A stretch of 64,000 nucleotides of DNA, from contig OZ024743.1 in the NCBI GenBank assembly GCA_964016885.1, positions 71,548,001 through 71,612,000 of the forward strand, given 5' to 3'. The DNA comes from Eledone cirrhosa. Its lineage: Eukaryota. Below, in pieces: positions 25,189 through 62,457 of the stretch (within the stretch, counting starts at the first letter, position 1; each line of letters starts with the position of its first letter). Both the position numbers and the translations under genes were made by a program. The notes below the pieces were generated by a model. The model had not been told where the DNA came from, ran no database searches, and saw only the letters and a program-made list of their open reading frames with translations.

Positions 25189-25304
25189 TAGTTATGTAAT
25201 AAATAACATAAGATAATTATTTCTTTTACCAGTGGTTTCTTGAAAGCAAAGAAGAAACTACTGGTAAATGAAATAATTTTCTTATGTTGTGTATTACATA
25301 ACTA
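25189..25304. repeat. fold-back palindrome with a hammerhead 3' half-core
   Basis: TAGTTATGTAAT...ATTACATAACTA imperfect inverted repeat; GAAACTACTGGTA at 25254-25266. Confidence 0.75.
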
Positions 25305-25424
25305 TATATATGTGTGTGTGTGTGTGTGTGTGTGTGTGTGTAAAAGGTAAACAGAAATAACAACACAATCGGTACAGTATATGGAAGGTATATATTAGGT
25401 TAACGCTTGATATAGCAGGAAGAG

Positions 25425-25462
25425 GGTCTTAACGTTTCGGAAGCTAGTCCTTCATCAGAAAA
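25425..25462 (-). ncRNA. minimal type I hammerhead motif in a PLE pLTR (about 25341-25530)
   Basis: Minus strand CTGATGA-AGGACTAGCTTCC-GAAACGTTA; same family as 40899-40935. Confidence 0.7.
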
Positions 25463-25549
25463 AAGAATGAGAAATAAAATAGATTGAGGGGACGAGCGGG
25501 ATGGAATTGGAAAAAATGTCTTTATATATATAAAGTTAGGGTTATGGTT

Positions 25550-25851
25550 AAGAGGAAACATAATACTACCACTGATGATGTTTCAGATTTGCAACGAAAG
25601 AACTTTGGTAGACTATATATATGTATTTATCTCTGAATGTTTGACCGTTGGTCAGTCAATGATAAACATTGATGGCCAAATGAATTAACTATGGAGATCT
25701 AACAGATACAGAAGCGAAACCCAATCAAACAGTGAGTGTGTTCTGTTATTATTTCTGGCAATATTATTACAACAATATGACCCTCCTCAAGTATAACAGT
25801 ATTTGTTTCGACACACGATTTCATCCTCGCAAAACAAATTCATCGCCGTTA
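25550..25851 (+). mobile_element. solo pLTR of Penelope family B with a hammerhead at 25566-25611
   Basis: Homologous to 50450-50702 and to 47706-47790 (reverse); CTACCA-CTGATGA-...-GAAAGAACTT-TGGTAG with a perfect 6-bp helix I. Confidence 0.8.
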
Positions 25852-25864
25852 TATATCTATATAT

Positions 25865-26025
25865 CGGCGGCTGATGGCTTCACGATCAGCAGAATTAGCC
25901 GTTGAAACGGCTTGAGCTCAGCCGTCGGGGTCCTACTCGTTCCTATTACCCACTCTACTCCCCTAAGTATTGAGTACTTTGGTGCGTTATGGTCCACCTG
26001 GTTCCTTACCACATTTCCTCCGTTA
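25865..26025 (+). mobile_element. short PLE-type pLTR, family C
   Basis: GAATTAGCCGTTGAAACGGCTTGAGCTCAGCCGTCGGGG...; further copies at 35954-36164, 36340-36447 and 60140-60306, all abutting (TA)n. Confidence 0.7.
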
Positions 26026-26399
26026 TATATATATATATATATATATATATATATATATATATATATATATGTACATATATACCCAAGGTTTGTATGAAAT
26101 AATCGATCTGTCTAAAGAATAACTTTATGCATTTCTCCGAAAGACTGAATGACTTAGAACTAATAGATATTATCGTCACGTAGTTCATATTGCTGTTGGT
26201 GGTATAGATAATGAATCTTGACTGACTATGCAGCCAATATGTCTGCCGGTTCCAGGAATGTTTTCTTAAGCTCATCTAATGAGATTCATCTAGATTGTAG
26301 AATATAATCCATCTAGGATAGCTGTTTAAACTGAATATAAAAAAAAATATTTTAATATTAAGCATTATAACAATGTGTACATTTGATTTCCATCGGTAG

Positions 26400-26682
26400 G
26401 ATAAACTAAATAGCCTGCTCGTGAAATTACCGTGCCAGGGGTTGCTCAGTCTACATACTCGGGTACCATTAAAGTTGCGTTTTACGGTGATTCAGTATGA
26501 TGCGCTGTGTAACATGTCCGGTCCTTTGCATTACAGCTACAACTCATTTTTGCCAACTGTGTAAAACGAAGGAACGTGAAATAAAGGGTCTTACTGAAGG
26601 ACACATCACGTCACCGGGAATCGAACTCCTGATCATACGATCGGGAGCCAAATATTTTAACCAGCAAGCCACAATCCGTCAT
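26400..26682 (-). mobile_element. degenerate tRNA-derived SINE
   Basis: Minus strand GTGGCTTGCTGGTTAAA..GAGTTCGATTCCCGGTG..GTGTCCTTCAGTAAGACC. Confidence 0.55.
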
Positions 26683-58644: not shown

Positions 58645-59468
58645 AAAGCTGATGTGGCTTTGGCCCCATTCAGCGTTACACCCGAGCGATCGCACGTGGT
58701 GGACTTTACCAAGTCATTCATGACGAAAGGAACAACTGTGGTTGTAAAAAAGCCCCAAAGAACAGTGTGGATGTTTCAGTTTTTATTTCCATTATCCAAC
58801 TATGTGTGGATTGCAATATTTTTATCTTTTCTCGTGGTAAGCCTTGCTTTGTTTGGCGTGAGTCGAGTGAACTCTGACAAACATCGCAAGTATACGCACA
58901 ACTTCCTCGAGAGCTTCTGGTATATATGGGGAACTTTACTGCGGGGAAGTCTCAAAAGTTCTCCATTAGCAGTGTCTAGTAGAATAATAAGTAGTTCATG
59001 GTGGCTTTTTTCACTGATTATCATATCTGTGTACACAGCCAACCTCGCTGCTTTTCTCACTGTTACTAACATTTATTTACCTATAGAAAATGCAGCAGAT
59101 TTAGCGTATCAAACTGCCTATGACTATGGAACGGTAAATGAAAGCCAAATTGAAGATTTTTTCAAGCACACCAATATTAGTCATTATAGTAAGATGTGGC
59201 TTCATATGAGGTTCAACCCCGACAGCATTGTACAGAGGGTTGAGGAAGGATTAGCTAGAGCCAGAAACACCAAATATGCCTTTATCTGGGATTCTCCGAC
59301 ACTTCGATGGGAAATCGCCGACAAATGCGATCTTATGGAAATCGGGAATCCATTCGATTTAAAAGGTTATGGATTCGCTGTACGGAAAAACACAGCCTAT
59401 ACGGAGGCACTGTCAAATGCCATTTTAAAACTGGGTGACGCTGGTGAACGACAGAAGAGTGAGGGCAA
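58645..59468 (+). CDS. iGluR exon (end of S1, M1, pore loop M2, M3, S2)
   Basis: TTTTTCAG/GTAAGT boundaries; KADVALAPFSVTPERSHVVDFTKSFM, SFWYIWGTLLRG, WWLFSLIIISVYTANLAAFLT, YGTV, YAFIWDS, KGYGFA. Confidence 0.97.
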
Positions 59469-60139
59469 GTAAGTATGTTTTATATTTTAAAAATATTTTT
59501 TGGTTACGCAAGAATACACCTACTAGATCAATATAGAATCTAATCGATTCGCCACCACCCTAAATAAAAACAAACAAAAAACAACGACCAAGAAAACATC
59601 TGTATTCCACAACATTATATATTCGTATATTCAGTCATATTTACTCAGACATTAAATATGACTACATTTATATACTCATCAGTACAGTCTCGGCTATCCA
59701 CTATGTATGTATACTGATATAACTTAATCGTATATTTTAGTTGTTAGCACACGTCATAAAACACACACACACACACATACACACACACGCACACAAACAC
59801 ACACTCACACACGCACGCACACACACACATACACACATACACACACACACACATACACACAGTTTGTCCTTATTCGCATTGTGTTTCGTTTTGCCTTGTT
59901 TTCGATCTTTCCTTTGTCCACTTTATATTAATTTTCATATATTTATCACACACACATACACATCACACACACATACACACACACACACACACACACACAC
60001 ATATATATATATATATATATATATATATATGTATATATATATATATATATATATATATATAAATATATATATATATATATATATATACTATATATATGTA
60101 TATATATATCTATATAGAAAAAGGTATGACCTCGAGGTC

Positions 60140-60306
60140 AGAGCTCAAGCCGTTTCGACGGCTATTTCTGGACTCACTCTACTACCTTAAGTATTGAGTA
60201 CTCTGGTACGTTATGGGGTAATAGGAACGAGTAGGACCCCGACGGCTGAGCTCAGGCCGTTTCGAAACGGCCTAAGCTCAGCCGTCGGGGTCCTTCTCGT
60301 TCCTAT
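60140..60306. mobile_element. rearranged family C pLTR with a palindrome at 60221-60306
   Basis: Symmetry centre TTTCGAAA at 60260-60267, directly on the hammerhead GAAAC. Confidence 0.75.
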
Positions 60307-60471
60307 ATATATATATATATATATATATGTATATATATATATATATATATATATATATATATATATATATATATATATATTATATATAGAGAGAGAGAGG
60401 TAGATCACTAGAAGGTAATATCCGTAGTGGTAGAGCACTCAGTCCATGGGACGAGTTTGGTAGAAGTGATT

Positions 60472-60604
60472 ACACAACAGTTAGTTGACCATACCGAGAA
60501 CAATTGTTGCACCTTATGCGGATCTTCAACTTGGACTGGTAATCCGCTGAAGATCCGCATAAGGTGAAACAATTGTTCTCGGTATGGTGAACTAACTGTT
60601 GTGT
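60472..60604. repeat. fold-back palindrome containing a hammerhead core (60544-60582)
   Basis: CTGAAGA-TCC GCATAA GGT-GAAACAATTGTT in the right arm, with a mirrored copy in the left arm. Confidence 0.75.
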
Positions 60605-61925
60605 TACTACTTATATATATATATATATATATATATATATATATATATATATATATATATATATATGTAGATAAATCTACAAAAATATACGGTAGTGTCC
60701 AATCCGTATGAAGAACTCAATGTAATCCAAATATGAAAAGAGAAGATGCATTGAAAGGTTTTTATTATTTTGAATTTTTTAATATAAGGAACTTGTTCTT
60801 TGTTTTTATTCATATATATATATGTATGTTTTTACACACACACATATATATATATATATATATATATATATATATATATATATATATATATATATATATA
60901 TATATATATATATATATATATATATATATATATATATATATACAGTTCAAGAGAACCAATCTTAAAGAGAGAGATGGAGATAGGAGAGGAGAGATTGGTG
61001 AATTAGTTAGAAGCCAATAATGACATATAGTCATCTGATCCAGAAATATTATATGGAGTAGCGAAACAATTGTAAACGGACAATTTGCTGGCCTTGTGCC
61101 TAAAGTAGAAACAATTATTATTAATATTATTATTATTATTATTATCTACATTCCTTACATCAAACTAAAATATGTTGACAATCTTTTAATAATGTCTTCC
61201 TTGTGAAATTTGTGGTCTTGTTTTGCTTAACTAATGAATATATATATATATATATATATATAAATTTTAGTACAGCATTAACGAAGCCTTTGGCTGCGGC
61301 TGAGCTAACGAATGCAGATTCGGAATGCAGCTTAACACTCGATGAAGAATAACACCCCAGAATTATAACAATACGTTTAGACAGCTTTGCAAATCAAATA
61401 TAACGGCTTACAGTCCAGCCGCATTGCCATAGCAACGAAATAAACTGAACTCAGGGAAAGATTTTGACTGACCTGGTCCATCACGTGGACATCGAATGCA
61501 ACACATAACGCATAACGTATACCATACAATATGCATCACATATAACATACAACATCTACGCTAGGTTTCTGTAAATCCGAGATCGACTAAATCCGCTTGC
61601 AGGGCTCTGCAAGTTAATGGCCTTTGACGACAGAACAAAGGATTTACTTCGTCAGCAAGTCTTGCGTTCTATAGCCTCGGCAGGTGTGTTTTCTAACAGT
61701 AATTTTCGCTATAGACACGTGGTTTTCTCAAAGGGAGGTGAATTCGAAATTTGGGACAAAGGAATGAAATTCCCTTAGACAAAACGAATTAAGCACTCAA
61801 CAAGAGTTATCAAACTAACATAAACAATTAATCAATCAATAGAATTGTCTAATTAAATTAATCAGTTAATATATATATATATATATATTAATAAAAAAAA
61901 AAAGAGGTGTGACACACGAGTTGTG

Positions 61926-62293
61926 ATATATTAATAAAAAGGAAAAGAAAATGCTGACAAATTTTTCCCAGTGAAAAATAGTTTAATTAGGAATAAGTAT
62001 AAATTAGTAATAAGTATTGGTTAGTATTCAGTTTTAGTTTTAAGTTTTTACCGGTTGCGCATTTCTAATGCTTTTCAAAAATAATTTTGAGATAGAGAGC
62101 TCGTGAGCAAACATCACGAGCGCTCTATCTCAAAATTATTTTTGAAAAGCATTAGAAATGCGCAACCGGTAAAAACTTAAAACTAAAACTGAATACTAAC
62201 CAATACTTATTACTAATTTATACTTATTCCTAATTAAACTATTTTTCACTGGGAAAAATTTGTCAGCATTTTCTTTTCCTTTTTACTAATATA
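61926..62293. repeat. near-perfect palindrome with arms of about 180 bp, related to 45382-45657
   Basis: Loop GCAAACA at 62107-62113; shares TTTTGAAAAGCA and G(C/A)AACCGGTA with the 45.5-kb element. Confidence 0.9.
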
Positions 62294-62319
62294 TATATAT
62301 ATATATATATGTATACATC

Positions 62320-62457
62320 ATTATTTAATATAGCATTGTCTTCTACATGACTAGAACTGTTTCAGTCGTATGAAATCATAAGGAATGCGCATTCTTGATG
62401 ATTTCATAGAGGTGAAACAGTTCTAGTCCCATAGAAGTCATTTCTATATTAAATAAT
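62320..62457. repeat. fold-back palindrome with a hammerhead 3' half-core
   Basis: GACTAGAACTGTTTC / GAAACAGTTCTAGTC (62414-62428); centre AATGCGCATT. Confidence 0.8.

Follow-up and report, generated by a model that had tools for sequence, protein, structure and literature searches.

What produces short palindromes that look like DNA transposon remnants and yet carry pieces of a ribozyme? The question is raised by a 64,000-nucleotide stretch of Eledone cirrhosa DNA (assembly GCA_964016885.1, OZ024743.1; hereafter the window, in whose numbering all coordinates are given), which belongs to contig 4 of an animal genome of 3.0 Gb and in which a preliminary description reported eight palindromes, here P1 to P8, centered on hammerhead ribozyme sequences. 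By its sequence anatomy, each palindrome joins, head to head, two 5′-truncated 3′ ends of a Penelope-like element (PLE), and we think it probable that each is a single PLE insertion made by two reverse transcriptions that started on one RNA and ran off its 5′ end. In structure the palindromes are thus ordinary dead-on-arrival PLE insertions. PLE insertions with an adjacent inverted 5′-truncated copy and a tail at one end are already described in passages of earlier work (PMC8557442; PMC3846280; PMC8969392), so the new element class suggested by the preliminary description has to be given up; since the structure itself is known, the gain is mechanistic.

All eight palindromes are present, beginning at about 25189 (P1), 35954 (P2), 45382 (P3), 51541 (P4), 60221 (P5), 60472 (P6), 61926 (P7) and 62320 (P8), with arms that are 76–97% complementary. 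Once microsatellites are removed, the window holds 11 self-palindromes of at least 70 nt, against none in 20 of 20 local shuffles. The preliminary coordinates delimit the paired part alone; one arm usually runs on for a further 29–81 nt as a tail. Each arm bears the 3′ half of a type I hammerhead-like motif, as had been noted from the letters. The accompanying statement that the CUGANGA core is usually lost, with the axis just 5′ of GAAAC, describes half of the cases: the core is lost, with the axis in helix II or at GAAAC, in 4/8 (P1, P2, P4 and P5), but the other 4/8 (P3, P6, P7 and P8) keep a core-like heptamer in both arms, which is the U3-A8 variant TTGAAAA in two of the four palindromes and otherwise CTGAAGA or TTGATGA. 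In P8 the cleavage triplet, read by eye in relatives, is GUA, six bases further on, and not GUC. The palindromes were also said to be mostly unrelated in sequence, which is true at the family level, but P2 and P5 belong to the same family and P3 and P7 are 72% alike over 128 nt.

One arm from each of seven palindromes was searched against its own genome, the P2 arm also representing P5. The eight palindromes trace back to seven families (F1, F2, F3, F4, F6, F7 and F8), and a further family, F9, served as a test case. First-look candidates numbered 258–1855 per family; these totals are lower bounds, 40 candidates having been scored and 30 loci fetched for each. Arms were called by aligning 234 loci and the window to natural long copies, and removal of duplicates and of arms cut by a locus edge left 549 arms. 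All families have two fixed 3′ ends, one untailed and one tailed, and variable 5′ ends. The 3′ ends adjoin (TA)3 or more at 229/293 untailed and 160/195 tailed ends, against a background of 16% in the same loci. The association with (TA)n tracts reported for the window palindromes thus extends to their relatives, with the exception of the tailed ends of F6 and F8, most of which do not lie beside (TA)3 or more (7/25 and 0/5 do). By eye, a small hairpin can be made out in the tails of F1, F2, F4, F6 and F8 (for example 36086–36163), a short way past the untailed end; its CTC...GAG stem is similar in each, and it is a candidate recognition signal for the reverse transcriptase (RT). F9 is a very abundant young PLE (7,830 exact matches of one 34-mer) that is found in the window at 39928–40132, 45767–47768 and 51254–51456, two copies having an identical junction at the −69 edge discussed below.

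Four families (F2, F3, F6 and F7) could be traced to coding parents that carry RT and GIY-YIG frames. For F2 there is a complete copy, L266, in which an open reading frame (ORF) is flanked by pseudo-long terminal repeats (pLTRs). The encoded protein finds 940 relatives at E<=1e-10, has relatives of about 700 aa and sits close to a GIY-YIG/RVT_1 atlas cluster (0.96). The F2 parent has a CxCX5C linker (CNCPDRSTC), a DKT motif, a CxxC near the end and, judged by eye, an RWR/KWR variant of the RWK motif. In passages of PMC8557442 the Hydra clade is defined by a CxCX5C linker, a DKT motif, a short ORF and (TA)n targets, and F2 appears to fit this definition, F6 and F9 agreeing with it by one motif. 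The F7 arm is continuous with a Pfam GIY-YIG frame preceded by a CX4CxxC linker (CDRPNCGIC), the F3 arm runs into a frame resembling that of F7 (L198), and relatives of F6 have a similar nuclease frame upstream; a Pfam search returned no match for the F2 and F6 frames. By the CX2-5CxxC linker before GIY-YIG, which Nematis also has, F3 and F7 are putative Neptune-type PLEs. The pLTRs of F2 form a partial tandem: in 10 of 26 scored ORF-bearing copies the 5′ pLTR extends upstream of the core. A canonical core just before the F2 arm was considered as an alternative parent and rejected, as the 24 pattern matches, 8 of them with the core directly attached, are junction coincidences; the true F2 parent has a U3-A8 core 45 nt further upstream.

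Of 196 Rfam matches 150 were displayed; none of these is a hammerhead family and all are microsatellite or hairpin noise, so that the ribozyme calls are based on motif scans, on folds and on pairing between bases in relatives. In long relatives, scans for the motif combined with pairing judged by eye identify a type I core with three helices. In minimum free energy folds F1 takes the three-way shape, F3 and F6 form helices I and II, and F2 and F4 reach it in part; the fold of F8 did not yield the three-way shape. Helix II regions are unusually long, 55–65 nt, in F2 (L250, L263 and L266) and F4 (L174 and L175), and the G10.1–C11.1 pair is absent from several families.

One clue to how the palindromes form is the position at which their arms begin. 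Rather than being spread uniformly along the pLTR, 5′ ends pile up one-sidedly in six of the window families, so that the preliminary description was right to suspect non-random breakpoints. Counts from −4 to +10 around this edge, compared with the 30 nt just upstream, are 142 versus 3 for F2 (n=183), 30 versus 0 for F3 (50), 10 versus 1 for F4 (48), 32 versus 5 for F6 (56), 31 versus 1 for F7 (55) and 70 versus 4 for F8 (104). Because query arms were required to extend to the start of the query, the near side of the edge is biased but the empty upstream side is not, and neighboring and partner arms have the same edges. In F9 the edge is very sharp, with 19 of 31 edge-type arms ending on the base at −69, at a C-A step. 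The preliminary description had tied the axis to helix II of the ribozyme. Measured from core position C3, the edges lie at −69 (F9), −43 (F7), −42 (F3), −35 (F4), −8 (F6), −6 (F8) and +45 (F2), and that of F2 alone falls within helix II, inside a 33-nt loop. None of the edges coincides with a hammerhead cleavage site. It is well supported that the edge is a discrete template end. Judged from sequence motifs, this end is likely the pLTR transcription start, and hence the start of the element RNA: in five of seven families the edge window, chosen blind to motifs, contains the parent’s best or tied-best TATA-plus-initiator site (window fractions 0.03–0.11), with boxes at −30/−31 in F3 (TATAAAA), F8 (TATAAAT), F7 (CATAAAA) and F2 (TATTTAT) and an initiator only in F6, and a pyrimidine-A step is present at 7/7 edges, those of six window families and F9. 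Since the putative start site of F2 lies inside loop II, RNA made from it would carry half a ribozyme. By eye, G makes up about half of the free bases that precede the F9 edge, in a sample that includes pattern-selected loci and mis-called partner arms.

The second clue is the way in which arms are paired. Among 165 pairs, 132 join a tailed to an untailed arm, one has two tailed arms, 25 are untailed on both sides and seven are intermediate; in the five families with alignable tails, 112 of 121 pairs are tailed plus untailed, as are 36 of 43 without a query arm. The pairs have 156 distinct junction signatures, with 52 overlaps, 18 flush joints and 95 inserts, many of them copied from the element. 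This mostly locus-specific variety indicates that palindromes are built anew at each insertion and speaks against identical palindromes that recur as independently mobile units. F9 pairs, which were drawn from the first 100 listed matches with those lacking a detected partner left unscored, are concordant in length: 18 are short-short, 18 long-long and none mixed (Fisher, 2e-10). Two of the short pairs have an insert or an 18-nt overshoot, and two or three of the long pairs have secondary rearrangements. At least 6 of the 18 long F9 pairs are non-nested by hundreds of bases, meaning that each arm holds sequence the other lacks. Taken together, non-nested arms, concordant lengths and subfamily variants common to both arms of one insertion (seen by eye) point to one RNA that was primed twice, both times on the same pLTR copy.

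In the mechanism we propose, the PLE enzyme would cut both strands of a TA repeat and begin reverse transcription twice on a single RNA, once at either end of the tail. Both cDNAs would likely run off the 5′ end of the RNA and then be joined, perhaps by microhomology or by templated-insertion end joining. On a tandem transcript, priming on the 5′-proximal pLTR could give the short palindromes and priming on the 3′ copy the long ones. The hammerhead would lie near the axis only because it is close to the promoter, and short copies, being without the upstream promoter box, would be dead on arrival. A further proposal, on which we are evenly divided, is that PLE insertion is obligately paired, with one RT-nuclease dimer priming both cut strands on the same pLTR copy, one at each tail boundary, and that palindromes made from the 5′-proximal copy record the transcript start in the genome thousands of times over. 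If true, PLE promoters could be located from these stubs without recourse to RNA, and both the inverted pLTR and the tail at one end would be explained.

Several observations weigh against this account. F1 has no clear edge, and its link to PLEs is a single suggestive copy with a nuclease-like frame 1.5 kb upstream. Among the fetched copies no ORF-bearing parent was seen for F4 or F8, which are placed among PLEs by the anatomy they share, nor was a long parent seen for the exact F2 subfamily of the window. The loci are BLAST top hits and neighbors of TA-rich loci and not a census, F3 and F7 are related and hence not independent cases, the TATA and initiator motifs were scored with consensus strings and not with matrices, and 5 of 7 F8 references were chosen after a TATA filter. 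Of the 25 pairs untailed on both sides, 18 are from F8 and 5 from F4, where diverged tails may have escaped alignment. The asymmetry of tails is near-obligate in the genome, whereas a study in vitro saw no strand difference in start site (PMC11167929, in the passages cited below). With regard to the promoter, the F4 edge has no TATA box, YAG, which resembles a 3′ splice site, occurs at 6/7 edges, and a prospective TATA-plus-initiator prediction failed for F9, naming −87 when the real edge is at −69 and has no TATA box. Two other window families showed no clear edge in 15 and 23 arms, so no prediction was possible for them.

The YAG reading and the failed F9 prediction lend some weight to the idea that the edge is an RNA end or hard RT stop that does not come from transcription start, such as splice-acceptor-like processing or a protein or structure block near the ribozyme, an idea that would leave the two priming events unchanged. 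Pyrimidine-rich stretches lie upstream of the edge in F4 and F6, every edge is within 70 nt of the hammerhead core, and an intron end in Drosophila virilis Penelope maps to the 5′ end of helix I in a passage of PMC4209133. However, a spliced exon would leave its 8-mers in the arms, and edge-type arms contain none from the stretch of 400 nt lying further upstream (the counts for F3, F4 and F8 include unspecific motif matches), and the spacers have no constant leader. Nor does the F9 edge have an AG, and all 18 long F9 pairs pass it intact. The offset from the ribozyme, moreover, spans 114 nt. We regard an edge of this kind as unlikely.

The preliminary description proposed that reverse transcription stalls at the ribozyme stem and that the cDNA snaps back on helix II and primes itself. 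More generally, one cDNA could fold back near the RNA end or on helix II, self-prime, and then jump to the target at its TA-like untailed end. Such a route is compatible with the subfamily variants shared by the arms of one insertion and with most pairs of a tailed and an untailed arm, the 5′ ends of which are no more than 10 nt apart in 81 of 132 and reach further in the tailed arm in 27. In the remaining 24 it is the untailed arm that extends more than 10 nt further 5′. Neither arm of these pairs, or of the non-nested F9 pairs, can have been copied from the other, and simple snap-back of one cDNA is thereby excluded. F2 at first sight favors helix II, as both ends fall inside helix II or loop II in 62 of 65 pairs, but a helix II snap-back would leave the native loop II at the center and 0/65 palindromes have it. 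Outside F2, head-to-head pairs keep the core in 88 of 100 cases and have both ends in helix II in 7 of 100. Snap-back is thus excluded as the general route, although it could remain a minor one, and as an explanation of the palindromes we consider it improbable.

It was correctly foreseen from the letters that the palindromes look like MITEs (miniature inverted-repeat transposable elements) and are nevertheless derived from PLE pLTRs by retrotransposition. A reading of them as TA-targeting MITEs derived from a DNA transposon, or as mobile units copied whole, would fit their size, inverted arms, TA flanks and high copy number, but the outer ends are unequal, the junctions differ between loci and in longer copies the arms run directly into RT/GIY-YIG frames; this explanation is refuted for the families with parents and very improbable overall. 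Palindromes can also arise as sequencing chimeras, but a fold-back artefact of assembly or library has next to no credibility here, because the arms are diverged and end at fixed biological sites, and raw reads from an independent 2026 run with the same species label contain opposite-strand joints in the F7 edge region (7, 5 and 4 reads with 2–3 starts each; the window’s own junctions were not shown bridged).

Table 1. Arms of the eight palindromes and two additional F2 arms in the window.
Feature	Position	Strand	Remarks
P1 tailed arm, F1	25124..25249	-	start inside helix II, without core; BLAST match to natural copy L148; relatives with full hammerhead
P1 untailed arm, F1	25252..25305	+	
P2 untailed arm, F2 (putative Hydra-type parent)	35954..36016	-	starts at family edge inside loop II
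P2 locus-specific spacer	36017..36023	.	7-nt gap
P2 tailed arm, F2	36024..36163	+	78-nt tail, ends at (TA)n tract
P3 untailed arm, F3 (putative Neptune-type parent)	45379..45520	-	whole U3-A8 hammerhead at 45458-45487
P3 tailed arm, F3	45521..45721	+	core at about 45554; 63-nt tail
P4 tailed arm, F4	51472..51665	-	starts just after core, in 65-nt helix II
P4 untailed arm, F4	51667..51751	+	
P5 left arm, F2	60175..60265	-	tail internally deleted; starts at GAAAC
P5 untailed arm, F2	60262..60306	+	4-nt overlap at axis
P6 tailed arm, F6 (relatives: Hydra-type endonuclease upstream)	60406..60543	-	core region kept
P6 untailed arm, F6	60546..60612	+	complete hammerhead, core at 60547
P7 tailed arm, F7 (putative Neptune-type parent)	61903..62106	-	U3-A8 core kept; GAAA read as GCAA
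P7 untailed arm, F7	62105..62294	+	core at about 62142
P8 left arm, F8	62321..62388	-	starts at family edge; degenerate core
P8 right arm, F8	62389..62456	+	core-like TTGATGA at 62395, then decayed tail
Additional F2 tailed arm, no partner	25890..26023	+	starts 4 nt inside edge
Additional F2 untailed arm	60114..60174	-	starts exactly at edge

The window contains related structures besides those in Table 1. A PLE insertion at 47705–50712 has inverted arms of 719 bp that are 99.3% identical (47770–48488 and 49994–50712) around an RT/GIY-YIG-like frame (48284–50017, minus strand), with hammerhead cores at 47984–48011 and 50471–50498 and an inner 87-bp inversion, and is a long-long example of the same pattern. 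Another hammerhead-bearing family is present at 25350–25479 and 40831–40951 on the minus strand and ends in (AC)n or (TA)n; its 15 arms have no clear 5′ edge. Further self-palindromes, 66–84% complementary, lie at 3128–3231, 32371–32793, 39591–39737 and 57159–57203, the first three adjoining TA tracts, and a 490-bp repeat with a short palindrome at one end occurs in two copies that are 88% identical (12171–12650 and 57161–57644). Among unrelated features, an apparently intact long interspersed nuclear element occupies 4921–10110 on the minus strand, with an ORF1 of 572 aa and an ORF2 of 1156 aa that encodes endonuclease, RT and zinc finger; a 45-bp unit repeated 22 times in tandem at 501–1614 is the first part of a dispersed repeat resembling a short interspersed nuclear element, with at least seven other copies in the window; and an open frame with ionotropic glutamate receptor domains at 58585–59472 on the plus strand is probably a host-gene exon.

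How do these palindromes compare with known systems? MITEs are copied whole and end in two equal, fixed termini; the palindromes described here resemble them in look, and in practice stubs of this kind will probably be labelled, in error, as MITEs or as microRNA-like hairpins. L1 twin priming produces an inversion, joined by microhomology, from two primers on a single RNA. The mechanism proposed here likewise has an RNA with two primers, but the two arms of an L1 inversion copy non-overlapping RNA segments whereas both arms of these palindromes copy the same one. Canonical endonuclease-bearing PLE units, as presented in passages of PMC8557442 and PMC3846280, have the same head-to-head inverted copy, tail at one end, pLTR hammerhead and microsatellite targets. 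They differ in that whole insertions here shrink to 90–370 bp and tails measure 29–81 nt as against 30–40, and those passages do not describe a fixed 5′ edge, concordant arm lengths or non-nested arms. TATA and initiator motifs in a pLTR, and self-priming as a source of PLE junction palindromes, were put forward in the same literature (PMC3846280, Arkhipova et al. 2013, in part), and a passage of Craig et al. 2021 (PMC8557442) poses as still open the question of how PLEs come to insert in tandem and inverted form with a tail at one side.

Passages of Cervera and de la Pena 2014 (PMC4209133) describe the minimal hammerheads of metazoan PLEs as type I motifs in pLTRs, with a U3-A8 variant, an extra base before helix II and a palindromic helix III, and note dual hammerheads 100–700 bp apart on opposite strands. 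The ribozymes described here have these features in common with them, the extra base and the palindromic helix III included, but differ in the long helix II of F2 and F4 and in the missing G10.1–C11.1 pair of several families. Non-LTR retrozymes are likewise short, non-coding, PLE-derived hammerhead sequences, but, as described in passages of bioRxiv 10.64898/2026.07.22.740005, they are head-to-tail tandems with complete hammerheads, whereas the sequences here are head to head and the core is absent from every F2 pair. The literature search returned, in the passages retrieved, no account of an edge that moves relative to the ribozyme, of tail asymmetry or of concordant arm lengths. Edges at differing distances from the ribozyme in several unrelated families separate a ribozyme effect from a promoter effect.

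The closest biochemical parallel is Poseidon-Ac, as reported in passages of Frangieh et al. 2024 (PMC11167929). There, the PLE protein cleaves and extends both target strands in vitro from two internal RT start sites, which delimit the tail; the reaction does not depend on ribozyme cleavage, a dimer is predicted and inverted products are not modeled. A two-strand reaction with two start sites fits the two priming events proposed here. It differs in showing no strand bias, where about 93% of pairs in five families have a single tail. Tail asymmetry, non-nested arms and concordant arm lengths are therefore concrete predictions that this existing in vitro system could address.

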